Positions 2,283 through 62,219 of a DNA stretch of 64,000 bases are shown piece by piece (the first letter of the stretch is position 1; each line of letters starts with the position of its first letter). This stretch comes from a bacterium (GTDB lineage Bacteria; Patescibacteriota; Minisyncoccia; Phycocordibacterales; UBA9973), in contig JAKAKW010000002.1 of NCBI GenBank assembly GCA_021824345.1, positions 86,552 through 150,551 on the forward strand, written 5' to 3'. Below the pieces are notes generated by a model that worked only from the letters and a program-made list of their open reading frames with translations, made no database searches and had not been told where the DNA came from. Both the position numbers and the translations under genes were made by a program.

Positions 2283-4010
2283 ATGAATACTCAAGGAAAA
2301 AATTCCTCCCGAGGCGGGCCGCAAGTCTGCCGCAACTGCCGAAGAGAGTTCGTAATAGAACCTCCTGACTTGAAATTTTACCAAAATATAAAAGTTCCTC
2401 CGCCGACCTGGTGTCCGGAGTGCCGGATGGCCAGGCGTTTTTCATTTCAAAATACCTGGAGCTTATACTGGCGTAATTGCGACAAATGCGGAAAGAAAGC
2501 GCTGTCAACTTATCCGCCGGAAAAGAAAATAATCGCTTACTGTTCCGAGTGCTGGTGGGCGGACGATTGGGACGGCACGGAATACGGCATGGATTACGAT
2601 CCTAAAAAAACGTTTTTCGCGCAACTGACAGAATTGAAAGAGCGCACTCCTTTTATGATGTTGCAAAATGATCATGTCACTATCAAAAATTCCGAATATT
2701 CTTCCTATATTGGCTGGAGCCGCGATTGTTACTTGGTATTTTGGGCCGATTACTGCGACAACGTGTGTTATTCTTCCATTTTAAATGGCTTGCGCTTCAG
2801 TTCCGATTGCCTGCGGGGATTTGATTCAGAGCTCTGCTATGAATCCATCGGCTTTTCCGGCAATTACCGCACTTTCTTTTCCGACGAATGCGACAATTGC
2901 GTGGACGTATGGTTTTCCCGCAATTGTTATGGATGTACCAACTGTATTGCCTGTGTCAATCTGCGCGGGGCCTCCTATTGCATCTTCAATAAGAAATATT
3001 CAAAAAATGAATACGTGGAGGAGGTAAGGAAATTGGGATTAAACTCATGGAAAGCCTTGCGCGAATTGGAGAATAGAGCGCACGCCTTCTGGTTGGAAAG
3101 ACCGTACAGAGAATACAACGGGAACAGCTTGAATACTAATGTTTCGGGAGATTACGTGTACGAATCCAGAAATGCGAAGGATATGTACATAGTAAACGGC
3201 GCGGAAAATTGCCGATGGTGCCAGTTCATCACCGTGAAGCCGGCCAAAGATTGCCGCGACTACTCCGGATGGGGGAATAACACTTCTCTCATATATGAAA
3301 GCATTAATGTGGGAGAGGACAGTTACGGCGTACGTTTTTCCGGCATTTGCTGGGCGGACTGCTTAAACCTTGATTACTGCTACTTTTGCATATCCGCGAA
3401 GAACGCTTTCGGATGCGTGAATCTGAAAAGGAAAAATTACTGCATCCTAAACAAACAGTATCCGAAGGAGGAATTTTTCAAACTGCGCGAAAAAATAATT
3501 GAGGACATGAAGAAAAATCCATATACGGACAATATCGGACGCGAATTTCGATATGGAGAATTCTTTCCGCCGGAATTCAGTCCATATCCGTACAACAAAT
3601 CCAATGCCATGCGCTTTCTGCCAAAAACAAAGAGCCAGGCGCTACGGGAAGGGTACTCCTGGGAAGAAGAGGAAATACATAAATATGACACCACTATCGG
3701 ATCGGCGGATCTGCCGGACAGCTTGGAGAAAACGGATGAATCGGTGCTGGAAGAGGTGATAAAATGTCCGAATTGTCCGCGAGGGTACAAGATCGCCAAA
3801 CTCGAATTAGACCTATTGCGCAAGATGGGCCTGCCTCTTCCGCACGAATGCCCTCGTTGCCGGGAAGAGAAGCGCTTCGCCCGGCTGAACAAGCCGAAAT
3901 TCTTTGAGCGCAAATGCGCAAAGTGCGGGGAAAAGATCAGCACCGCCTTTTCTCCCGACCGTCCGGAGATCGTGTACTGCGAAAAGTGCTACCAAGCCGA
4001 ATTTCTTTAG
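2283..4010 (+). CDS. Third paralog of the Cys-rich zinc-ribbon repeat protein family (575 aa)
   Basis: Same N-terminal motif (CRNCRREFVIEPPDLKFYQNIKVPPPTWCPECRMARR), internal duplicated Cys-rich modules, and C-terminal CPNCPRGYKIAKLELDLLRKMGLPLPHECPRCR ... DRPEIVYCEKCYQAEFL. Own promoter TTGCCT-18-TGGTATAAT at about 2226..2255. Confidence 0.6.
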   Translation: MNTQGKNSSRGGPQVCRNCRREFVIEPPDLKFYQNIKVPPPTWCPECRMARRFSFQNTWSLYWRNCDKCGKKALSTYPPEKKIIAYCSECWWADDWDGTEYGMDYDPKKTFFAQLTELKERTPFMMLQNDHVTIKNSEYSSYIGWSRDCYLVFWADYCDNVCYSSILNGLRFSSDCLRGFDSELCYESIGFSGNYRTFFSDECDNCVDVWFSRNCYGCTNCIACVNLRGASYCIFNKKYSKNEYVEEVRKLGLNSWKALRELENRAHAFWLERPYREYNGNSLNTNVSGDYVYESRNAKDMYIVNGAENCRWCQFITVKPAKDCRDYSGWGNNTSLIYESINVGEDSYGVRFSGICWADCLNLDYCYFCISAKNAFGCVNLKRKNYCILNKQYPKEEFFKLREKIIEDMKKNPYTDNIGREFRYGEFFPPEFSPYPYNKSNAMRFLPKTKSQALREGYSWEEEEIHKYDTTIGSADLPDSLEKTDESVLEEVIKCPNCPRGYKIAKLELDLLRKMGLPLPHECPRCREEKRFARLNKPKFFERKCAKCGEKISTAFSPDRPEIVYCEKCYQAEFL

Positions 4011-14826: not shown

Positions 14827-16154
14827 TGAATCAAGAGACTCCTTCTTCTTCCGTTTCCGAGGACGCTCCAAAAAATTCCGGCGGCCCGCTGGTGAAATTC
14901 CGCAAACATTATTGGAAGATACTTGGACCGGGGCTTACCACCGGCGCGGCGGACGATGATCCATCCGGCATTGCCACTTATTCGCAGATGGGAGCGCAGA
15001 ACGGTTTCGGCCTTGCCTGGCTGTCGGTCTTCCTTCTCCCGTTCATGGCCACGGTGCAGGAAATGTGCGCCCGCATAGGCTTGGCCACCGGAGCGGGGCT
15101 TGCTTACAATATCAAGCGCCATTATTCCCGGAAAGTTCTGATGTTCTCCACTTTCCTTCTTTTGTTCGCCAACGTGTTCAACATAGGCGCGGACCTGGGC
15201 GCCATGGCCAAGGCGACGGAACTTCTGGCGCCGGGCGCCAATTTCGTGCTTCTGATTTTTTTCTTCGCGATATTGTCTTTGGCCCTGCAGGTGTTCATAC
15301 CTTACAAAAAATATTCCAAATATCTCAAATATCTTTCTTTTGTGCTGATTGCTTATGTTTTATCCGCGGTATCCATCCGCATGGATTGGCCTTCCGTACT
15401 GCGCCACTTGGTAATACCGACCATAAGCTTTTCCAAGAGTGAAATAATTATCATTGCCGCCGCCTTCGGCACCACCATATCTCCTTATCTTTTTTTCTGG
15501 CAAACGGATCAGGAGATAGAAGAACAGATTGAACGGGGGGAAACGAGCGTTAAGTCCAGAAAGGCAGGGAACACTCCGGAGAAGATCAAAGATATGCGGG
15601 AAGACGTATGGTCCGGAATGGCTTTTTCAAATTTGATAATGTTTTTTATCATTGCCGCCTGCGCCGCCACCTTGTTTCCGAACGGCATTACAAACATAAA
15701 CACTGCGGCCGAAGCGGCCCTGGCCCTGCGGCCGTTTGCCGGCGATTTTGCGTATTTTCTCTTTGCTCTCGGCATTATAGGGACCGGTCTTCTGGCTATC
15801 CCGGTTCTGGCCGGGTCCGCCTCTTATGCCATTTCCGAATCAATGGGCTGGAAGTTCGGCCTATACCGCAAATTCAAACAGGCCGCTTCTTTTTACGGAG
15901 TAATAATCCTCGCCGTGGCGCTTGGCATTGCCATGAATTTTATCGGCCTTGATTCAATTAAAGCTCTCATATACTCAGCAGTGTTGAACGCCGTTGTTTC
16001 TCCCTTGGCGATTTTCTTCATTCTGCGCATCAGCGGCAATGGGAAAATAATGGGTCAATTCAAGAACAAGCCGATTGGAAACATCTTCGGCTGGATAACT
16101 TTTTTCGGAGCGGCTATACTAAGCGCTCTTTCAATATATTTTTTGATATGGTAA
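14823..16154 (+). CDS. NRAMP-family divalent metal transporter (MntH-like)
   Basis: GPGLTTGAADDDPSGIATYSQMGAQ motif (NRAMP DPGN-like), 11-12 TM segments, 443 aa. Confidence 0.65.
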   Translation: MMNQETPSSSVSEDAPKNSGGPLVKFRKHYWKILGPGLTTGAADDDPSGIATYSQMGAQNGFGLAWLSVFLLPFMATVQEMCARIGLATGAGLAYNIKRHYSRKVLMFSTFLLLFANVFNIGADLGAMAKATELLAPGANFVLLIFFFAILSLALQVFIPYKKYSKYLKYLSFVLIAYVLSAVSIRMDWPSVLRHLVIPTISFSKSEIIIIAAAFGTTISPYLFFWQTDQEIEEQIERGETSVKSRKAGNTPEKIKDMREDVWSGMAFSNLIMFFIIAACAATLFPNGITNINTAAEAALALRPFAGDFAYFLFALGIIGTGLLAIPVLAGSASYAISESMGWKFGLYRKFKQAASFYGVIILAVALGIAMNFIGLDSIKALIYSAVLNAVVSPLAIFFILRISGNGKIMGQFKNKPIGNIFGWITFFGAAILSALSIYFLIW

Positions 16155-30996: not shown

Positions 30997-32061
30997 ATGC
31001 TTTATATTCCTTTCTACGATCCGGAAAAATCCTACGAAGAGAACTTCATCGACGGTCCCTTCGGCGCATTCGCGGACGGAAAAAAATATGAGAACGAGGG
31101 AAAGCCGAAGTACGATTTTTTCGGGGCTCCGGTATATGCGCCCTTCGGCATCCCGGCGGGCCCGCTCATAAACACTAAGTTTGCCAAAGCTGCCCTGGAT
31201 AAAGGTTTTGATATCGTTACATATAAGACAGTGCGCAGCGGAAAATACCCCACTCATCCGTGGCCCAATGTGCTTTCGGTGAAGGTGGACGGCGATTTGA
31301 CCATTGAAAAAGCGGGTGAAAAGCTTGTTGCGGGCCGTGACTATTCTGAGCCGCTTTCAATCACCAACTCCTTCGGGGTGCCGTCGTTTGAGCCCGAATT
31401 CTGGCAGAAAGATATTGCCGAGCTTATAAAATATGCAAAACCGGGACAGGCGGTAGTGGGAGCTTTCCAGGGGACCAAGAAAGAAAGACAGGGAAAGGAT
31501 GCTTACATTCAAGATTTTCGGGACGTCGCTCTTCTCATGAAAGAGACTGGGGTGAAAGTAATGGAAGTGAATCTCAGCTGTCCGAATGAAGGAACCGCGA
31601 ACCTGCTTTGTTACGACATCTCGCGGAGCGCGGAGGTGGCAAGGGCGATAAAGGAAGAAATAGGGGATATCCCGCTCATTGTGAAAACAGGATATTTCAG
31701 AGATGATACCGAACTTGAGAATTTTGCGAAGGAAGTAGGCGGAATCGCGGATGGAATTTCCGCCATCAATACCATTCCCGCAGAAATTGTGGATGAAAAC
31801 GGCGGGCAGGCCCTGCCCGGAGAGGGGAGACAGAAAAGCGGTGTATGCGGGCATGCCATAAAATGGGCGGGCCTGGATATGGCGCGCCGGCTTGCCGGAC
31901 TGCGCGAAAAGCTCGGGTACCGATTCAAGATAATAGGGGTAGGCGGAGTATCTTCCCCCGCGGATTTTCAGGAATACAGGCAAGCCGGCGCCGATTACGT
32001 CATGTCCGCCACCGGCGCCATGTGGAATCCGCATTTAGCTCAGGAAATAAAAGAATCTTAG
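30997..32061 (+). CDS. Dihydroorotate dehydrogenase-family (PyrD/DHPD-like) flavoprotein
   Basis: TIM-barrel signatures: VNLSCPN, IVKTGYF, DGISAINT, IGVGGVSSPADFQEYRQAGADYVMSATG. Confidence 0.65.
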   Translation: MLYIPFYDPEKSYEENFIDGPFGAFADGKKYENEGKPKYDFFGAPVYAPFGIPAGPLINTKFAKAALDKGFDIVTYKTVRSGKYPTHPWPNVLSVKVDGDLTIEKAGEKLVAGRDYSEPLSITNSFGVPSFEPEFWQKDIAELIKYAKPGQAVVGAFQGTKKERQGKDAYIQDFRDVALLMKETGVKVMEVNLSCPNEGTANLLCYDISRSAEVARAIKEEIGDIPLIVKTGYFRDDTELENFAKEVGGIADGISAINTIPAEIVDENGGQALPGEGRQKSGVCGHAIKWAGLDMARRLAGLREKLGYRFKIIGVGGVSSPADFQEYRQAGADYVMSATGAMWNPHLAQEIKES

Positions 32062-32085
32062 TTTCTTATTGCTTGATAATTTGGG

Positions 32086-32225
32086 CCGGGTAAATATTTG
32101 TCTTTGAGCGGGTTGTGTGGCCGAGCGGGCACGGTTCGAGCGTAGGCGAAAGAGCGAGGCCGAGCCCTCGAGCCGGCTCGCTGGGCCGGCGAGAAAAGCG
32201 AAGAGGCAGAATATTTACCCGGCTC
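32086..32225. repeat. Intergenic element bounded by 14-bp perfect inverted repeats (gccgggtaaatatt / aatatttacccggc) enclosing about 105 bp of GC-rich sequence
   Basis: Direct inspection. The interior carries gccgagc/ttcgagcg motifs shared with other IR-flanked elements in this window. Confidence 0.5.
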
Positions 32226-47413: not shown

Positions 47414-48094
47414 ATGCAGGATACAATCATAATTTCATTGGGCGGATCCCTCATAGTGCCCGACGCAATTGATGAGGGATTTCTGAGGGAATTTAGAGAC
47501 CTGATTCTTGCGCAAACCAAGCTTGGAAAAAAATTCGTGATAACCACCGGCGGGGGAAAGGTGTGCCGGCGGTATCAGGAAGCGGCCGCGGAAATCTCCG
47601 GGGCTTCGGATGTGGATAAGGATTGGATAGGCATAGCGTCTCTTAAACTGAACGCCGAGCTGGTGCGGGTGGTTTTCGGAGAGCATGCATATGAAAATGT
47701 AGTTTTCAATTTATCCGAAAAACCCGAAACTGAGAAGCCGATAATAATCGGAGCGGCATATGAGCCCGGGCACAGCACGGATTGGGATATGGTTCTGGCC
47801 GCCAAGACATTCGGAGCAAAAAAGGCGGTGAATCTTTCCAACGTGGATTACGTCTATGATTCCGATCCCCGAAATAATCCCGATGCCAAAAAATTTGAAA
47901 GTATTTCCTGGTCTGAGTACCGAAAGCTGATTCCTGAAGATTGGAATCCCGGCCTTTCCACTCCCTTTGACCCCATAGCCGCCAAGGAAGCGGAATCATC
48001 CGGCATCGAGGTGTCCATCATGAATGGCAAGCCGCTGGACAATTTCGCTGAATATCTTAGAGGAGGAAAATTTAAAGGGACTGTAATAAAATAA
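47414..48094 (+). CDS. pyrH: Uridylate (UMP) kinase, archaeal-like amino-acid-kinase-family form
   Basis: IIISLGGSLIVP and TTGGGKVCR motifs, typical of the short archaeal-type PyrH. Confidence 0.7.
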   Translation: MQDTIIISLGGSLIVPDAIDEGFLREFRDLILAQTKLGKKFVITTGGGKVCRRYQEAAAEISGASDVDKDWIGIASLKLNAELVRVVFGEHAYENVVFNLSEKPETEKPIIIGAAYEPGHSTDWDMVLAAKTFGAKKAVNLSNVDYVYDSDPRNNPDAKKFESISWSEYRKLIPEDWNPGLSTPFDPIAAKEAESSGIEVSIMNGKPLDNFAEYLRGGKFKGTVIK

Positions 48095-48096
48095 AG

Positions 48097-48216
48097 TGGA
48101 ACCATGAGAACAATTTTTGTAGGGGGTTTCGAGCGCGGCGGCGCGAGAATTTCAGGGATTTTTTCAGCAGAAAAAATCCCGTACCCGGAAAAAATTTGTT
48201 CTCATGGTTCCACGTA
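48097..48216. repeat. Intergenic element exactly filling the pyrH-map gap. 18-bp perfect terminal inverted repeats (gtggaaccatgagaacaa / ttgttctcatggttccac) around a GC palindrome and the hairpin gggattttttcagcagaaaaaatccc.
   Basis: Direct inspection. The 33-nt core gggattttttcagcagaaaaaatcccgtacccg is identical to the reverse complement of 58213..58245. Confidence 0.6.
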
Positions 48217-48222
48217 TTCATA

Positions 48223-48990
48223 ATGATTATTATCAAAACACCCGAGGAAATAGAAATAATGCGTGAAGGCGGGAAGCGCCTTGCGGAAGTGCTCAACAAG
48301 GTAAAAGCTAAAGTAAGGCCCGGAATTTCCACCAAAGAACTGGATGATTATGCCTTTAGGCTGGTAAAGGAGATGGGCGACCGGCCGGCATTTTTAAATT
48401 ATCAGGCCGATGGCGCGGGCAGACCGTATCCGGCCAGCTTGTGCGTTTCAGTGGAAGACGAGGTGGTGCACGGCATTCCAAAGACAGGCAGAATATTGAA
48501 AGAGGGGGACATAGTGTCTCTCGATTTCGGCATTGTGCACCGAGGTCTTTTCACCGATTCGGCGATTACTGTTCCAGTGGGTTCTATCAGTCCGGCCAAG
48601 GAAAAGCTTCTCCGGGCCACTGAAGAAGCCTTGTATGTTGGCATTGACGCTGCTCGTGGAGGAAAGAAAGTGGGAGATATAGGCTACGCCATTGAAAGCT
48701 TTGTGAAAACTTACAAATACGGAATTGTGGACATTCTTTCCGGCCACGGGGTGGGCAGGGAGCTGCATGAAGATCCGTATGTGCCCAATTTCGGCAGAAA
48801 AGGCACCGGCGAGCTTTTAAAACCCGGACAGACTCTAGCCATCGAGCCGATGCTGAATATGGGGGTAAAGGAAGTGATTTTTGACGATGACGGATGGACC
48901 TTTCGCACCGCGGACGGGAAACCATCCGCCCATTTTGAACATACTATTCTCATCACCGACGGCGATCCGGAAATTTTAACAAAAGCGTAG
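48223..48990 (+). CDS. map: Methionine aminopeptidase type I
   Basis: Pita-bread fold motifs: VHGIP, DIVSLDFG, GHGVGRELHEDP. Start at the ATG after the repeat element. Confidence 0.9.
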   Translation: MIIIKTPEEIEIMREGGKRLAEVLNKVKAKVRPGISTKELDDYAFRLVKEMGDRPAFLNYQADGAGRPYPASLCVSVEDEVVHGIPKTGRILKEGDIVSLDFGIVHRGLFTDSAITVPVGSISPAKEKLLRATEEALYVGIDAARGGKKVGDIGYAIESFVKTYKYGIVDILSGHGVGRELHEDPYVPNFGRKGTGELLKPGQTLAIEPMLNMGVKEVIFDDDGWTFRTADGKPSAHFEHTILITDGDPEILTKA

Positions 48991-52556: not shown

Positions 52557-52654
52557 ATCTTGTATTTTAAGTTCAGCCCGGGTTGGGAATATTCAGAAAC
52601 AAAAAAACTTGCTCGTCCAGTTGCAAGTTCTTGCAGTTTGTCTATACTGAAAGT

Positions 52655-52822
52655 AGGGTTATTTTCAATTATTACCTAGTACACAATCTATAGGGAGCCT
52701 CGATCGCCCCTTGCTGTGGCATAGGGCGTCTGACACCCACGTGGCTATCAGGCTACGGTAATACATTGGAAATAACCCTAAGAAAGAATCCGCATTTTAT
52801 CCCGCCCCGCGGGATTTTTTCT
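52655..52822 (+). ncRNA. Candidate stand-alone structured ncRNA (~170 nt; 6S-RNA-like architecture) with own promoter and terminator
   Basis: Promoter TTGCAA (52621) -16- TATACT (52643). 5' agggttattttcaattattacc pairs with 3' ggtaatacattggaaataaccct (52655.. with ..52779) around an internal structured region. Ends with terminator atcccgc-ccc-gcgggat + tttttt (52799..52820). No ORF. Confidence 0.4.
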
Positions 52823-52887
52823 TTTTCCGGGAGTTTTTCCCTTTTTCCGTTATATATTTTCTCAAAATCGTTTATAATAATCTTAAT

Positions 52888-54252: not shown

Positions 54253-54255
54253 GCA

Positions 54256-54411
54256 AAGCGGCGGTCATGGCAGCGCTTCTCAAAAGCACGCATAAAACTC
54301 TGCTGAGTTTTTGCTCTGCTCGTCGCTCAAGGGAATCATAGCCGGAGTACCGGCTTGATTCCCTAAGCTCCTGCGCAAGGCTTTTCTCAAAGTCTGCCAT
54401 GACCGCCACTT
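54256..54411. repeat. Intergenic element bounded by 13-bp inverted repeats (gcggtcatggcag / ctgccatgaccgc) with internal hairpin gggaatca-tagccggagtaccggct-tgattccc
   Basis: Direct inspection. The internal ttctcaaaag motif is duplicated. Confidence 0.45.
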
Positions 54412-54444
54412 TTAGAAAACATTCATATTGTGTATAATTAGCGC

Positions 54445-57699: not shown

Positions 57700-57786
57700 G
57701 AGCTGTACATTAAAATTCCCTCAAAGGGGAATTAGTATTGCCAAGTCTAGCGTATTTGGGAAGGAAAGTCAATTGTAATAAAATCA

Positions 57787-58184
57787 TGTGGAGATGGGGG
57801 AAATCGAATCCCCGTGCAAGAGGCTGCGGAAGGAAGGTCTACATGCTTAGCGCGCTTTTTGATTTGAGCCGGCGGATTCTTAAGCGAGCCAAATATCCGC
57901 GAGCCGATTCCTTAAGGTTTGGAGAGAGACCAGGAAAAATCTCTTCCTATCCCGATAATGTTACACCTCGCCCAATCTATCGGAAGTTGAAAGGGGAGAC
58001 GCCGGCGTTCTTAAGCGAAAGCCGGAGCGAAAGCGAAGTCCTTCGCACCGAAGTACGGAGAGACCATTGCCATCACCTTGGAAGTCAATTTTGCAATTAA
58101 CTGTTTGGGCGAAGTTTTGCGAGTTTACGCCCATTCTCGGCATGCATTCGGGCCGCCGGCCTATTGTCTATGCCTGGCATCCCC
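57787..58184 (-). ncRNA. ssrA: tmRNA (SsrA), ~398 nt, adjacent to smpB
   Basis: 5' end GGGGAUG and 3' end GGGGAUUCGAUUUCCCCCAUCUCC-A-CA form a tRNA-Ala-like acceptor stem with G3:U wobble and T-arm. An internal reading frame reads GCG AAG GAC UUC GCU UUC GCU CCG GCU UUC GCU UAA (tag (A)KDFAFAPAFA), stop near plus coordinate 58008. Confidence 0.7.
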
Positions 58185-58185
58185 A

Positions 58186-58340
58186 TGCTTGTGGCGTCGA
58201 GGGTTTTGGTATGTTCTTTTACGGGTACGGGATTTTTTCTGCTGAAAAAATCCCCGAAGTTGGCTCGCCGCCGCCTGCCTGCCGGCAGGCAGGCTCGCCA
58301 AACCTCCTCCAAAAACATACCAAAACCCTCGCCTGCCAAC
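58186..58340. repeat. Intergenic element between ssrA and smpB. 17-bp inverted repeats (gagggttttggtatgtt / aacataccaaaaccctc) around the hairpin gggattttttctgctgaaaaaatcccc and GC palindrome gcctgcctgccggcaggcaggc.
   Basis: Shares a 33-nt identical core in reverse orientation with the element at 48097..48216. Confidence 0.6.
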
Positions 58341-58362
58341 TTTATATGTGACGAGTTTTGCG

Positions 58363-58809
58363 TCAATAATCTTTCAAGGTTCTGCGAAGCTCCCGCTCGG
58401 TTTCCCGCTTCTTTATAGTCTCGCGCTTGTCGCGCTTCTTTTTTCCGCGCACCACGGCCATCCCGAGTTTGATCTTCTTGCCTTTATTATACACTGCCAA
58501 AGGCACTATTGTCAAACTTTTGTCCTTTTCGCCGGAGGCCAATTCCATAATCTCTTTCCTGGTGAGAAGAAGCTTTCGGTTGCGCAGAGGATCATAATCG
58601 GCCCCGGCGTTTTTCGGCTGGAAAGGAGTAATGTTCGCGTTTATCAGAAACGCCTCGCCTCCGCGGACAATGACGAAAGAGCCGTCCAGGGACATTTTGC
58701 CCTCGCGGACAGATTTCGCTTCCATGCCTGAGAGCTCAATACCCGCCTCGTATTTATCAAGCATCTCGTATTCAAAGCGCGCTTTTCTGTTTTCCGCATA
58801 ATTTGCCAT
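58363..58809 (-). CDS. smpB: SsrA-binding protein SmpB
   Basis: MANYAENRKARFEYEMLDKYEAGIELSGMEAKSVREGKMSLDGSFV SmpB signature. Confidence 0.9.
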   Translation of the reverse strand: MANYAENRKARFEYEMLDKYEAGIELSGMEAKSVREGKMSLDGSFVIVRGGEAFLINANITPFQPKNAGADYDPLRNRKLLLTRKEIMELASGEKDKSLTIVPLAVYNKGKKIKLGMAVVRGKKKRDKRETIKKRETERELRRTLKDY

Positions 58810-58832
58810 ACGTCAATTCTAGCACATAGTAA

Positions 58833-58948
58833 AGCCGGAGAAGATATAAATTTATGCGATGGTTTGGCCGAGCTTCCAGCTCCGCAGGAGCAAAATTTTG
58901 GCGAGGAGAGCCGAGGACCTCGCGGAAATTTATATCTTTTCCGGCTTC
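58833..58948. repeat. Intergenic element upstream of ftsH bounded by ~21-bp inverted repeats (agccggagaagatataaattt / aaatttatatcttttccggct, 1 mismatch) with GC-rich interior (ggccgagc motif)
   Basis: Direct inspection. Same architecture as the other IR-flanked elements. Confidence 0.45.
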
Positions 58949-58988
58949 TTTAATTTCATTCGGGGCGTTTTCATGCTATACTCGCAGA

Positions 58989-61900
58989 ATGGATTTCAAT
59001 CTTAGAAACAGCCAGGAGCCGAAAATGAAAGGAAAAAAACCTCCGGAAAGAGGTCCTGGTTTTGCTGGCAGCATCGCCTCGGTGATTCTTATCTTTATGA
59101 TAATCACCGCCATATATCTTTTGATTTCGGACGCTTCCCAGCCGGTTCCCGCCATTCCCATTTCCCAGGTTGCGGAAGATGTTTCTTCCGGCGCGGTGCA
59201 AAAGATAGAAGTGCAGGGGAACGATCTTACGGTCACTTACAAGGACAAGGAAGTGAAAAAATCAAAGAAAGAGACGGAAACTTCCTTAACCGACACTCTG
59301 TCAAACTACGGAGTGAGCAAGCAGGTGCTTGACGCCACCGAGATAGACATTCAAGAACCGGACGGATTCGGGTACTGGGCGATAAACATTCTGCCGTATC
59401 TTCTGCCCATTATCTTCATCGTGATTTTCTTCTGGTACATTTCCCGGCAGGTTAAAGGGGCCGGCATGCAGGCGTTCACCTTCGGCCAGTCCAAGGCGCG
59501 CATTACCGATCCTTCCGACAAGAACAATCGCATCACTTTCAAAGACGTGGCCGGATGCAAAGAAGCGAAAGAAGAACTGAAGGAAATTGTGGATTTTTTG
59601 AAAAACCCCAAAAAGTTCCTGGATATCGGAGCGCGCATACCCAAAGGAGTGATTCTTACGGGAGCGCCCGGAACCGGCAAGTGCGTCAATGGCGATACAT
59701 TGATACAAACATCCAAAGGCCTTGTTGCAATAGAAGATGTGCCGAAATACTTTTCAGTAAATTCAGATAATACAGTGGAAGGGTTAAGAGTGATAACTAT
59801 TGACCCGAAGAACGGGACTTTAAAAACCACGGATGCTTCGCATTGGTATTCTTTAGGGGAGCAAGAAACTGTTGCCATAAAGACGGAATCGGGAATGTTT
59901 TTGGAAGGTACGCCGGAACACCCTATCATCGTAGTTGATAAAGATACAGGCCATTTTGTTTTCAAAAAATTAGCTGATATAACAACCGACGACTGGTGCG
60001 TGGTGGGCTCCCGGACGGAGGTATTCGGAACGCATACAAAAATTCCAGGCCCGGAAACCGCTTATATACTTGGTGTTTTGACGGGTGACGGATGCATGAC
60101 CATTAAAGGCAGAATAGTTCTTTCCACTATTGATAAAGAGATTTTGAGCCGGGTGCAAGATAATGTTAAGAGATTGTTCGGCGAGGAGTTTTCAAAAATT
60201 TCCGCCCATAAATGCGATTATCAGCTTTCAAATAGCAAGGCAAAGAATGCGTTATTGTCTTTTGGACTTTCAGAAACATACGCGAAAAATAAGAGGATTC
60301 TTGAGTGGGTTCGTTTTGCTCCCAAAGAGCACATAAGCAATTTCCTGCAAGGATTGTTTGATACCGATGGCACGGTTGAAAAGAGCGGAAGCGTAAGTTT
60401 GTCCAGCGCCAGCGAACACTTAATAAGAGAAGTGCAATTTATGCTTCTTAATCTCGGCATAGTGACCAGAAGGTATGAGCGCCAGAAGAAATACAACAAT
60501 CAACTCCAATACTACATTGTTATTTATGGAGATTTTGTGCAGTCTTTTCAGAACCAAATAGGGTTTTCAGTTGTCAGGAAAAAAGAAAGATTGGAAAAAA
60601 TTTGCCTCAAACAGCGAAATACAAATGTAAATGTCATACCTTCGCAAGGCAAGTCTATTCACATGGTCTGGAAACAGGCGGTAGCCACCTCAGGAATGGT
60701 TTTTAATAGGGAATTTTATAATCAATCTATTTATAAAAATTTCAAACGATACGTTTCGGGAGAACGGATGCCTTCCCTTAAAGGGATGTCAATATTTCTC
60801 GAAGGAACATCTCGCATTTCACCGTATATAAACGAAATGCCCGAGGTGGCGCATTTGAAAAGCTTGTCTTCCGGTAATTTTTTCTTTAGTAAAATTGATT
60901 CCATTAGCCGAGGCAGGAACAAAGTATATGATCTTACTGTACCGGTAACCCATAATTTTTTGGCCAATGGATTTTTTAATCATAACACCATGCTGGCCAG
61001 GGCCATCGCGGGCGAAGCGAGCGTGCCCTTCTACCATCTTTCCGGTTCGGAATTCGTGGAAATGTTCGTGGGCGTGGGCGCCAGCCGGGTGCGGGATCTT
61101 TTCCGGGTGGCCAAGAAATCCGCTCCGGCCATAATATTCATTGATGAAATTGACGCCATCGGCAGAACCCGCGGAGGGGGATTCGGAGGAAGCAATGACG
61201 AACGCGAGCAGACCTTGAACCAAATTCTGGTGGAAATGGACGGCTTCGAGCCGAACGAGAAGCTGATCGTGATTGCGGCCACCAACCGGCCGGATGTTCT
61301 TGACCCTGCCTTAATACGTCCCGGACGCTTTGACCGCAAAGTGGTGCTGGATCTTCCGGATCGCAACGACCGCGAAGAAATTCTGAAAATTCACGCCCAG
61401 AAAAAGCCCTTGGCGGAAGATGTGAATCTGCATCTTGTCGCCGAGCGTACCCCGGGCTTTTCCGGCGCCGATCTTTACTCTTTAATGAATGAAGGCGCCA
61501 TTCTGGCCGCCCGGGAAAACCGCAAAAAAGTGTTCCAATTTGACCTGATCCGGGCGATTGAAAAAGTAATGCTGGGTCCGGAACGCAAAAGCCACCTGCT
61601 TTCCAAGAAAGAAAAAGAAATTACCGCCTATCATGAAGCCGGGCACGCTATCGTGGCCTCGGTATTGCCTCACGCGGATCCGGTGCACAAAGTTTCCATA
61701 ATCGCCCGCGGACGCGCCGGGGGATATACGCTTAAGCTTCCTCTGGAAGAACGTCGATTGCAATCTCGGAAAGAATTCATTGACGATATCGCCATGTCGC
61801 TCGGAGGATATGCCGCGGAAAAAATGATGTTTGGGGATATTACTACCGGACCGTCCAGCGATCTGCAGATGGCCACGAACCTAGCCCGGGCCATGGTCAC

Positions 61901-62219
61901 TCGCTTCGGCATGTCCGACAGCATCGGCCCGGTCACCTGGGCGGAAGGAGAAGGAAAGCCGGGCTGGGGAGAACTTCGGGAAGATTCCCGTTCGGAAAGC
62001 GTGGCCGCGAAGATTGACGATGAAGTTTCCAGAATCGTGAATGATGGCATAAAAACGGCGCAAAAAGTGCTGAAGGATCACAAGAAAGCCTTCACTGCCA
62101 TTGCCAAGAAGCTTATCGAAGTGGAAACTTTGGAACGGGACGAATATGAAAAAATTCTCATCGCCCACGGCATAGAGCTGAAAAAGAAGGACGAGCCGGA
62201 GGTGGTCATAGAAGGCTAA
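58989..62219 (+). CDS. ftsH: ATP-dependent zinc metalloprotease FtsH, interrupted in-frame by a 435-aa intein within the Walker A motif
   Basis: Two TM helices and periplasmic domain. [12 protein letters not shown] then intein then [18 protein letters not shown]+ second region of homology. HEAGHAIV zinc motif. Start at ATG 58989 (the ORF track begins upstream in the leader). Confidence 0.85.
59682..60986 (+). mobile_element. Intein with LAGLIDADG homing-endonuclease domain inserted between Lys and Thr of the FtsH P-loop (GPPGTGK | T)
   Basis: Begins CVNGDTLI (block A, Cys1). TPEH (block B). Two LAGLIDADG motifs ([24 protein letters not shown]). Ends [21 protein letters not shown] followed by +1 Thr. 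Insert is AT-richer than flanking ftsH. Confidence 0.8.

Follow-up and report, generated by a model that had tools for sequence, protein, structure and literature searches.

What kind of element fills the gap between a pyrH-like kinase gene and map, and why does the same sequence recur in the gap between ssrA and smpB? A preliminary description had proposed either a conserved structured RNA or a mobile element that acquires its stem from the flank. The window, that is, the whole stretch of 64 kb that was analyzed, is compact, with about 80 genes, and its right edge cuts through a RecG gene. Homologues of its pyrH and SLOG genes assign it to Paceibacterota, a part of the CPR. The nearest genome, GCA_027428395.1 (loci L017 and L021), is fully syntenic, its pyrH and SLOG being 75% and 88% identical to those of the window; the syntenic loci further off are L024, L026, L101, L103, and L104. 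Two more loci enter the comparison: L100, whose pyrH is 74% identical to that of the window, and L002, which is the MAG WY5.bin123. The LepA of WY5.bin123 has no relative above 78% identity, indicating a separate Paceibacterota lineage, and since the nearest LepA reaches only 78%, the copy found in L002 allows no useful empty-site comparison.

Two elements of the window share a two-hairpin core

The features around the two gaps are as follows.

47414-48094, pyrH-like kinase gene, flanking E1
48096-48118, plus strand, left closing arm of E1 (copy A1), 18 nt perfect (48096-48113) and a T-run pairing with an A-run on the right side
48119-48187, plus strand, type-A core of E1, 69 nt, including the 33-mer at 48155-48187
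48196-48213, plus strand, right closing arm of E1, in which TTGTTCTCATGGTT resembles the local L017 sequence at the same site
48223-48990, map, flanking E1
57786-58184, minus strand, tmRNA gene (ssrA), Rfam 112 bits over the full model
58198-58215, minus strand, closing arm of E2 (copy A2), the 3' arm on the element's own (minus) strand
58222-58310, minus strand, type-A core of E2, 89 nt, with P3 and tail identical to E1
58314-58331, minus strand, closing arm of E2, the 5' arm on the minus strand, starting just downstream of the ssrA promoter-like site
58339-58366, minus strand, promoter-like site TTGACG-16-TAAAGT, overlapping the smpB stop codon and ending 8 nt before E2
58363-58809, minus strand, smpB, flanking E2

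The 33-mer GGGATTTTTTCAGCAGAAAAAATCCCGTACCCG occurs exactly at 48155-48187 on the plus strand and at 58222-58254 on the minus strand; there is no other window match with up to three mismatches, and none is expected by chance (100 shuffles). The preliminary description was therefore right that the same 33-mer lies at two sites in opposite orientation, and also right about the two gaps and their flanking genes. E1 (48096-48213) begins 1 nt past the pyrH stop codon and stops 9 nt short of the map ATG, while E2 (58198-58331, minus strand) is located between smpB and the tmRNA gene, their lengths being 118 to 134 nt. The tmRNA gene itself (57786-58184, minus strand) is missed by ARAGORN, though Rfam gives it 112 bits. 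Each element had been described as closed by its own perfect inverted repeat (IR) of different sequence, and both repeats are indeed 18/18 and unrelated to each other: 48096-48113/48196-48213 in E1, which can be extended to 30 nt at 87%, and 58198-58215/58314-58331 in E2, which can be extended to 21 nt at 95%.

The homology of E1 and E2 exceeds the 33-mer and, in the alignment, spans the entire interior between the arms. The E1 core consists of a GTAG head, a GGG that pairs with a 3' CCC, hairpin P2, hairpin P3, and a GTACCCG tail. P2 (UUC-GA-GCGC-GGCG-GCGC-GA-GAA) contains tandem G-A pairs, and P3 (GGGATTTTTTC-AGCA-GAAAAAATCCC) is an A/T hairpin with a C-AGCA-G loop. In E2, the lower stem of P2 co-varies (UUGGC/GCCAA), the GA/GA internal loop is the same as in E1, and an extra 18-nt palindrome is found. 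The GC-rich palindrome reported for each element was recovered as GCGC-GGCG-GCGC in E1, and E2 additionally has CTGCCTGCCGGCAGGCAG (58273-58294). The predicted fold of both is a long closing stem around two hairpins, with RNA z values of -9.6 and -9.9 for E1 and E2, respectively; as single-stranded DNA, either strand gives a fold z of -8.7 to -9.7, and the strands fold equally well.

A 39-codon open reading frame spans E1 on direct reading; a coding role was rejected because the shared core falls in a different frame in E2. Likeness to a hammerhead, a k-turn, or group II domain V was rejected by eye, the consensus motifs being missing.

The type-A core recurs in other genomes

An exact hairpin scan of GTDB species representatives, to which the genome of the window does not belong, yielded one further copy, A3, in MAG WY5.bin123. 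The 33-mer is thus present at more than the two sites of the window, with this third exact copy in a separate lineage. The A3 core is identical to the A1 core at 66 of 69 positions, and its arms form a third, unrelated pair. In L100, copy A5 places a type-A core in the same pyrH-map gap as A1, inverted relative to the genes; its arms are a fourth pair, and its P3 loop is altered (A1 versus A5, 63/70). A4, a diverged copy in L026, is located 3' of the tmRNA terminator; it has exactly the same P2 as A3, GAGCGCGACGGCGCGAG, and its P3 stem co-varies (TTTCGCC/GGCGAAA) beneath the unchanged C-AGCA-G loop.

The consensus of the type-A core comprises the GTAG head, GGG...CCC, P2 with tandem G-A pairs in a Y-GA-R context, P3, and the GTACCCG tail, measuring 67 to 89 nt without arms and 107 to 134 nt with them. 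The head tag, which is unpaired in the predicted folds, reads GTAG in A1, A3, and A5, GGAG in A2, and ATAG in A4. The five copies have five unrelated arm pairs, and the core was found in four different assemblies or MAGs. How similar two copies are depends neither on the relatedness of their hosts nor on the site: A1 most resembles A3, in another host and at another site, and is less like A5 (same site) and A2 (same genome). The cores are much better conserved than the surrounding host sequence.

Wider scans delimit this distribution. All 14 loci from a loop-degenerate hairpin scan of the JGI metagenomes are unrelated terminator-like hairpins, and all 72 loci from IMG/VR scans with the type-B block (see below) and the type-A P2 are chance or coding matches. 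Profiles of both families run with nhmmer against the Paceibacterota loci compared gave no hidden copies. Low-GC relatives (31 to 41% GC) have no such elements; families A and B were seen in a subset of the higher-GC Paceibacterota, and the 64-kb window holds two type-A copies and one type-B copy.

A second family and other inverted-repeat segments

The window contains seven loci with a perfect IR of at least 13 nt around a spacer of 40 to 160 nt, against 0.23 expected. Three segments of the window, at 54256, 58833, and 32086, had been described as relatives of E1 and E2. Their long-range IR architecture is borne out, with arms at 54255-54287/54380-54412 (33 nt at 79%), 58832-58859/58920-58947 (28 nt at 89%), and 32085-32098/32210-32223 (14/14); a shared type-A core is not, since all three lack it and nhmmer retrieves only E1 and E2.

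54255-54412, plus strand, type-B element, copy B1, between the beta-CASP and SLOG genes
58832-58947, plus strand, E4, a GC-rich insert with IR ends, separating the divergent genes smpB and ftsH
32085-32223, plus strand, E5, IR-bounded (14/14) and GC-rich, downstream of a DHODH-like gene

B1 has outer arms at 54258-54273/54394-54409, a hairpin with a C-UGCU-G loop at 54294-54311, and a long second hairpin. It defines a family of its own: B2, in the same beta-CASP-SLOG gap of the nearest relative (L017/L021), has a homologous interior, inverted with respect to the same flanks, and unrelated outer arms, and B3, the second type-B copy of L021, lies in the smpB-ssrA gap, where the window carries type A. 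RNAalifold folds the three copies into a three-way junction; of its 59 pairs, 32 have double changes, and the outer stem is entirely different in all three. Type B measures 113 to 134 nt without arms, and its CGTC is internal, not terminal. The loop C-UGCU-G, which reads C-AGCA-G on the other strand, is found on top of six different stems in the two families together. A conserved core with copy-specific perfect stems, as claimed in the preliminary description, is therefore a property of five type-A and three type-B copies in four genomes. E4 has no core in common with type A or B, and both E4 and E5 are singletons, with no relatives in the sequences searched.

Other repeats were noted in the same regions. 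Within the coding region of the DHODH-like gene (window 31884-31991), a 13-nt perfect IR (GCGCCGGCTTGCC/GGCAAGCCGGCGC) flanks a spacer of 81 nt; it can alternatively be drawn with 27-nt imperfect arms and 54 nt between them, and its interior contains GGGTACC and GGGGTAGG, with a weak type-A nhmmer match (E = 1.1). It could be the relic of an element within a gene, or a chance resemblance. Copies of a third intergenic repeat family, GGGGACAGGTCGGGAATATTCTTTCCCGGGGTGTCTCGCAGGCT, lie in three gaps of the nearest relative (L017 266-320, 11538-11576, and 14462-14494), and WY5.bin123 has one (L002 4741-4774); the window has none. The DUF8128-NDK gap of L017 is composite and includes a type-B fragment.

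Presence, absence, and orientation at orthologous sites

The occupancy of three gaps could be compared directly.

smpB-ssrA gap: type A (E2) in the window, type B (B3) in L021, empty in L024 and L026
smpB-ftsH gap: E4 in the window, absent from L021, L024, and L026
beta-CASP-SLOG gap: B1 in the window, B2 (inverted) in L021, no type A or B in L024, L026, L101, L103, and L104

In L024 and L026, only 25 to 60 nt separate the smpB stop codon from the tmRNA 5' end, and the promoter-bearing flanks of E4 are well conserved between the window and L021. The FtsH protein beside E4 (58980-62219) has an intein with a LAGLIDADG homing endonuclease; the FtsH proteins of L021, L024, L026, and L101 are 635 to 640 amino acids long and hence without intein.

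The pyrH-map gap of L017 is core-less; it has a perfect spacer-less 19+19 palindrome over the pyrH stop codon, plus a direct repeat. This palindrome (L017 10672-10709) encodes the last five codons and the stop of pyrH (TCQVD*), and the L017 PyrH is 3 residues longer than that of the window (229 versus 226 amino acids), the palindrome reshaping the coding end.

Both orthologous pairs, A1/A5 in the pyrH-map gap and B1/B2 in the beta-CASP-SLOG gap, are flipped although the genes on either side are the same. Of the copies located between co-directional genes, A1, A2, and B2 have the AGCA strand in sense orientation, and A5, B1, and B3 have it in antisense orientation. All A and B copies are intergenic, and A1, A2, A3, A5, B1, B2, and B3 begin 1 to 32 nt past a stop codon. 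In three assemblies of the relative at 99.8% identity, the elements show no differences and have the same orientation, so that the elements must be real and flipping is not rapid. Three gaps are filled in both the window and the nearest relative, an overlap that is not significant (rough hypergeometric P of about 0.1). Copies thus come, go, or replace one another, in either orientation, at intergenic positions that tolerate them: behind stop codons, ahead of promoters, and in the interval from a promoter to a processed RNA.

Every copy has private closing arms

The eight A and B copies have eight unrelated arm pairs. The conserved terminal inverted repeats that are the hallmark of MITEs are missing, as had been stated, and the termini differ copy by copy. 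Six arm pairs were searched with up to three mismatches and had no second occurrence in the loci searched, which for E1 and E2 were the window, L002, L017, L020, L021, L024, and L026; the arms of A4 and A5 were compared by reading and alignment only. The arms are 18 to 24 bp long, with 0 to 2 unpaired nt between them and the core. The predicted outer helices are nearly all Watson-Crick (22/22, 20 plus one G-U, 21 plus one, 21/21, and 18/18), and G-U pairs are nearly absent among more than 150 arm base pairs; compensation at the RNA level would be expected to leave more of them. Direct reading of the flanks revealed no direct repeats beside the arms of any copy and thus no target-site duplication.

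Among 32 comparisons of arms with relatives, only the E1 right arm gave a clearly significant result, matching the local L017 sequence (14/15, P ≤ 0.001); the match is compatible with an ancestral right arm of which the left arm would be the inverted copy. It is the only one of about 16 arms that is traceable to local sequence, and neither E4 arm is visible in the empty sites of relatives.

The tmRNA 3' end is partly duplicated just past its terminator in L021 (13333-13430), L026 (about 15745-15880), and L024 (12526-12700). The duplicate is inverted in L021 and L026, where it looks like a palindrome extension, and direct in L024, where it looks like an integration scar.

Transcription context and the structured-RNA reading

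The promoter-like site at the smpB stop codon keeps its position in the relatives with empty sites, and -35/-10-like sequences were recognized by eye right before the tmRNA 5' end in L026 and before B3 in L021. With these promoter-like sites upstream, E2 and B3 are parts of the pre-tmRNA leader, the removal of which by RNase P is expected. The SLOG promoter-like site starts right at the end of both B1 and B2, and no promoter or terminator belonging to the elements themselves was found. A perfect consensus promoter, TTGACA-18-TATAAT (12/12), is located within the smpB coding sequence (window 58486-58515, minus strand) and points at ssrA. Elsewhere in the window, an apparent small RNA gene lies between the NDK and beta-CASP genes (52628-52830), composed of a promoter-like TTGCAG..TATACT, a stem TAGGGTTATTTTCAAT/ATTGGAAATAACCCTA (52654-52669/52765-52780), and then a terminator CCCGCCCCGCGGGATTTTTTC; this region is conserved in L017 at about 15330-15500 and has no Rfam match even in E-value mode.

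As RNA, the AGCA strand folds 5 to 15 kcal/mol better than its complement in all seven A and B copies examined, an advantage that may reflect only its G+T richness. Rfam 15 in gathering mode has no match for the elements, and its E-value mode returned only generic miRNA-hairpin matches far below threshold, or none.

One explanation of these data is a conserved structured RNA that acts in cis and is co-transcribed with its neighbors as a module for processing or stability, for instance as an RNase III site between cistrons or in the pre-tmRNA leader; its closing stem would need only to pair while the core binds a protein. Several features would suit such a module: the elements lie inside transcription units (E1 between pyrH and map, E2 and B3 between the ssrA promoter-like site and the tmRNA), their 18- to 24-bp stems match the substrate size of RNase III, and stems co-vary under a C-AGCA-G loop that is conserved above six different stems, with tandem G-A pairs in a Y-GA-R context, a better-folding AGCA strand in 7/7 copies, and cores more conserved than their flanks. 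However, between co-directional genes sense and antisense placements of the AGCA strand are equally frequent (three each), the members of both orthologous pairs point in opposite directions, the elements are patchy among relatives with conserved synteny, and one and the same gap may hold different cores; furthermore, the arms nearly lack G-U pairs in more than 150 bp, and the elements have neither a promoter or terminator of their own nor an Rfam match. Taken together, the patchy sites, core exchange, random orientation, independence from host relatedness, and scarcity of G-U pairs in the arms speak against a conserved RNA, whether cis-regulatory or processed. Of the two readings first proposed, this one emerges as the weaker, and we consider it unlikely.

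Mobile branched-palindrome repeats as the favored explanation

We lean, with slightly better than even confidence, toward the A and B elements being mobile branched-palindrome DNA repeats of a REP- or MITE-like kind, the arms and core flips of which arise by DNA-level processes. The earlier idea of a mobile element that acquires its stem from the flank fits the data better than the RNA reading, with the reservation that only the E1 right arm was traced locally. The elements would be T-shaped, three-way-junction, non-coding repeats, with at least two families (A and B) circulating in higher-GC Paceibacterota, and each copy would combine a conserved two-hairpin core of 70 to 130 nt with a private closing IR of 18 to 24 bp. 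Within the cores, loops and junctions are conserved and stems co-vary. These cores are probably mobile but non-autonomous, as REP/REPIN or MITE units are, and an enzyme whose gene lies elsewhere would recognize them in folded single-stranded form; the GTAG head and the missing target duplications make a Y1/HUH transposase the obvious choice. The closing arms would not be carried between sites but would be made and kept perfect by template switching or IR recombination, and the same arm-homogenizing process would invert the spacer, so that both orthologous pairs come to be flipped. Any effect at the RNA level (a leader or 3' hairpin, an RNase III site) would be a by-product.

Both parts of the proposed arm-forming process have precedents. 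Template switching between IR arms has been shown to homogenize the arms and invert the spacer (PMC8604942), and a single template-switch event can create a perfect hairpin (PMC8794818).

With respect to the enzyme, tblastn searches of the window, L002, L021, and L026 gave no homologue of Y1_Tnp. The relative L101, which is without elements, encodes a 220-amino-acid Y1_Tnp protein next to its NDK gene (2777-3439), scoring 29.5 bits with Pfam and only 24 of the 80 bits required by the NCBIfam model REP_Tyr_transpos. By its sequence, the protein appears IS200-like and weakly RAYT-like, and we take it as a lead to a candidate class of enzymes that would mobilize hairpin repeats in the phylum.

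A point against mobility is that core conservation this high is also expected of a functional RNA. The gaps filled in both the window and its nearest relative could hold ancient selected residents instead of recording repeated insertion. The arms, in turn, could stem from an inverted duplication during insertion or later, or else from cores inserting at the tips of palindromes. The most specific version, a mobile element of a kind not described before in bacteria, is improbable as a whole: its T-shaped core would move as single-stranded DNA, build a private stem at each landing site by fold-back or template-switch synthesis or choose a palindrome apex, flip-flop as parvoviral terminal repeats do, and spread horizontally among CPR lineages.

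Alternative origins of the inverted arms

The order of events might also be reversed, with cores mobilized as single-stranded DNA inserting at the apex of pre-existing perfect palindromes, in which case the private stems would be the split target and excision would restore a spacer-less palindrome. Insertion sequences that target REP hairpins are known (PMC1525189). Such insertion would explain why the arms adjoin the core with 0 to 2 unpaired nt, why target duplications are missing, and why either orientation and either core type can occur at one site. Perfect palindromes of 15 to 22 bp are common in these intergenic regions, and L017 has its spacer-less 19+19 palindrome, which is not a terminator, exactly where the window and L100 carry type A. 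Yet the empty sites corresponding to E4 and E2 in L021, L024, and L026 show no palindrome; the empty palindromes are terminator-like, with a GC-rich center and A/T tracts outside, whereas the element arms are AT-rich beside the core; and the mobilizing enzyme would still be only a candidate. We therefore regard this origin as improbable, somewhat more so than a structured RNA.

A programmed invertible DNA switch (inverton), in which the IRs are recombinase sites and flipping regulates the neighboring genes, is very improbable. It would agree with the IR-bounded form and with interiors inverted between related genomes at two sites, but there is no promoter-like site within the elements, no recombinase gene near the elements in the relatives' gene tables, and no recombinase among the scanned window proteins (about a quarter of the window's genes). 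The three 99.8%-identical assemblies have one orientation, and the unrelated arm sequences of the copies mean that there is no common recombinase site. Finally, chance similarity or an assembly artifact, for which nothing but the metagenomic origin of the sequence speaks, is hardly conceivable given zero chance 33-mers expected, a fold z of -9 to -10, type-B elements identical in three separate assemblies, and a type-A core in four assemblies or MAGs.

Comparison with known repeat families

The closest counterparts of these elements are the REP/BIME and REPIN-RAYT systems. Like them, the A and B copies are extragenic and mostly located just downstream of open reading frames; they are palindromic and GC-rich compared with the genome, their stems co-vary while the loops are kept, and there is no target duplication. 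Further common traits are several families per genome, families shared by several species, and units that fold into larger structures. REPs bear an unpaired GTAG or CGTC tag at one terminus; GTAG heads three of the five type-A cores, GGAG or ATAG the other two, and the CGTC of type B is internal. There are also clear differences. A REP unit is a single imperfect palindrome of 20 to 40 bp with a stem of 6 to 13 bp and a short loop, whereas the cores of the A and B elements comprise 69 to 130 nt with two hairpins and a three-way junction, and every A or B copy has in addition a private closing stem of 18 to 24 bp. Their apparent density is low (two type-A copies in 64 kb), whereas REPs are numerous within a genome. 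REPs also go with a single-copy cognate RAYT gene, which encodes a Y1 HUH transposase and usually has repeats on its flanks; no RAYT gene was seen in the window. GTAG-tagged REPs were defined in a survey (Di Nocera et al. 2013, PMC3733652) among whose named taxa, in its available text, the CPR does not appear.

The A and B elements also invite comparison with MITEs, in that they show presence/absence polymorphism at orthologous sites (three gaps). Bacterial MITEs (Correia/NEMIS, ERIC, RUP, and BOX) are short, non-coding, and intergenic, form long hairpins, vary in presence and absence, and are co-transcribed. They have family-wide conserved terminal inverted repeats and target-site duplications; unlike them, the A and B elements have termini unique to each copy and no target duplication.

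Among organelles, the double-hairpin elements of Allomyces provide a mitochondrial comparison. Repetitive hairpin-forming elements of mitochondria are, in the available part of their description (Erpenbeck et al. 2009, PMC2800124), likewise small and GC-rich, invade time and again the few intergenic spacers of a compact genome, and occur in scattered taxa, and in both cases the mobilizing enzyme has yet to be named. Their hosts are organelles and their sequences are unrelated to ours; private stems and core flipping are not mentioned in that part of the description.

Template switching (Abraham & Hazkani-Covo 2021, PMC8604942; Monttinen & Loytynoja 2022, PMC8794818) explains perfect Watson-Crick arms that differ between copies and lineages as well as spacer inversion between orthologous sites. 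It is, however, a mutational mechanism and not an element family, and it leaves the conserved cores and their spread unexplained. Arms of 18 to 24 nt around a spacer of 70 to 130 nt also seem larger than the usual template-switch events.

Parvovirus and AAV ITRs are T-shaped hairpins of about 120 to 145 nt with two inner palindromes and a flip/flop interior. As an analogy only, they share with the A and B elements an outer stem enclosing two small palindromes and an interior in two orientations. They differ in being viral termini that prime replication, whereas A and B are internal to a bacterial chromosome, have no Rep gene, and are unrelated in sequence.

Small palindromic intergenic repeats are a known kind of element, not reported before for CPR bacteria in the literature searched, which held no earlier description of CPR repeats or MITEs. 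With no Rfam family or paper found that describes these elements, the view that they form a class undescribed in this lineage stands.

Significance

These data indicate that hairpin-repeat families, at least two and probably more, turn over in the few intergenic spacers of compact CPR genomes, the pre-tmRNA leader included. The combination of conserved cores, private Watson-Crick stems, and flips would give a natural, datable record of template switching building and maintaining long hairpins. For RNA-motif discovery, the elements are a caveat, because they display "covariation" without necessarily being RNAs. They are usable as markers of strain and lineage history, and they point to a candidate enzyme in Paceibacterota that would recognize single-stranded DNA.
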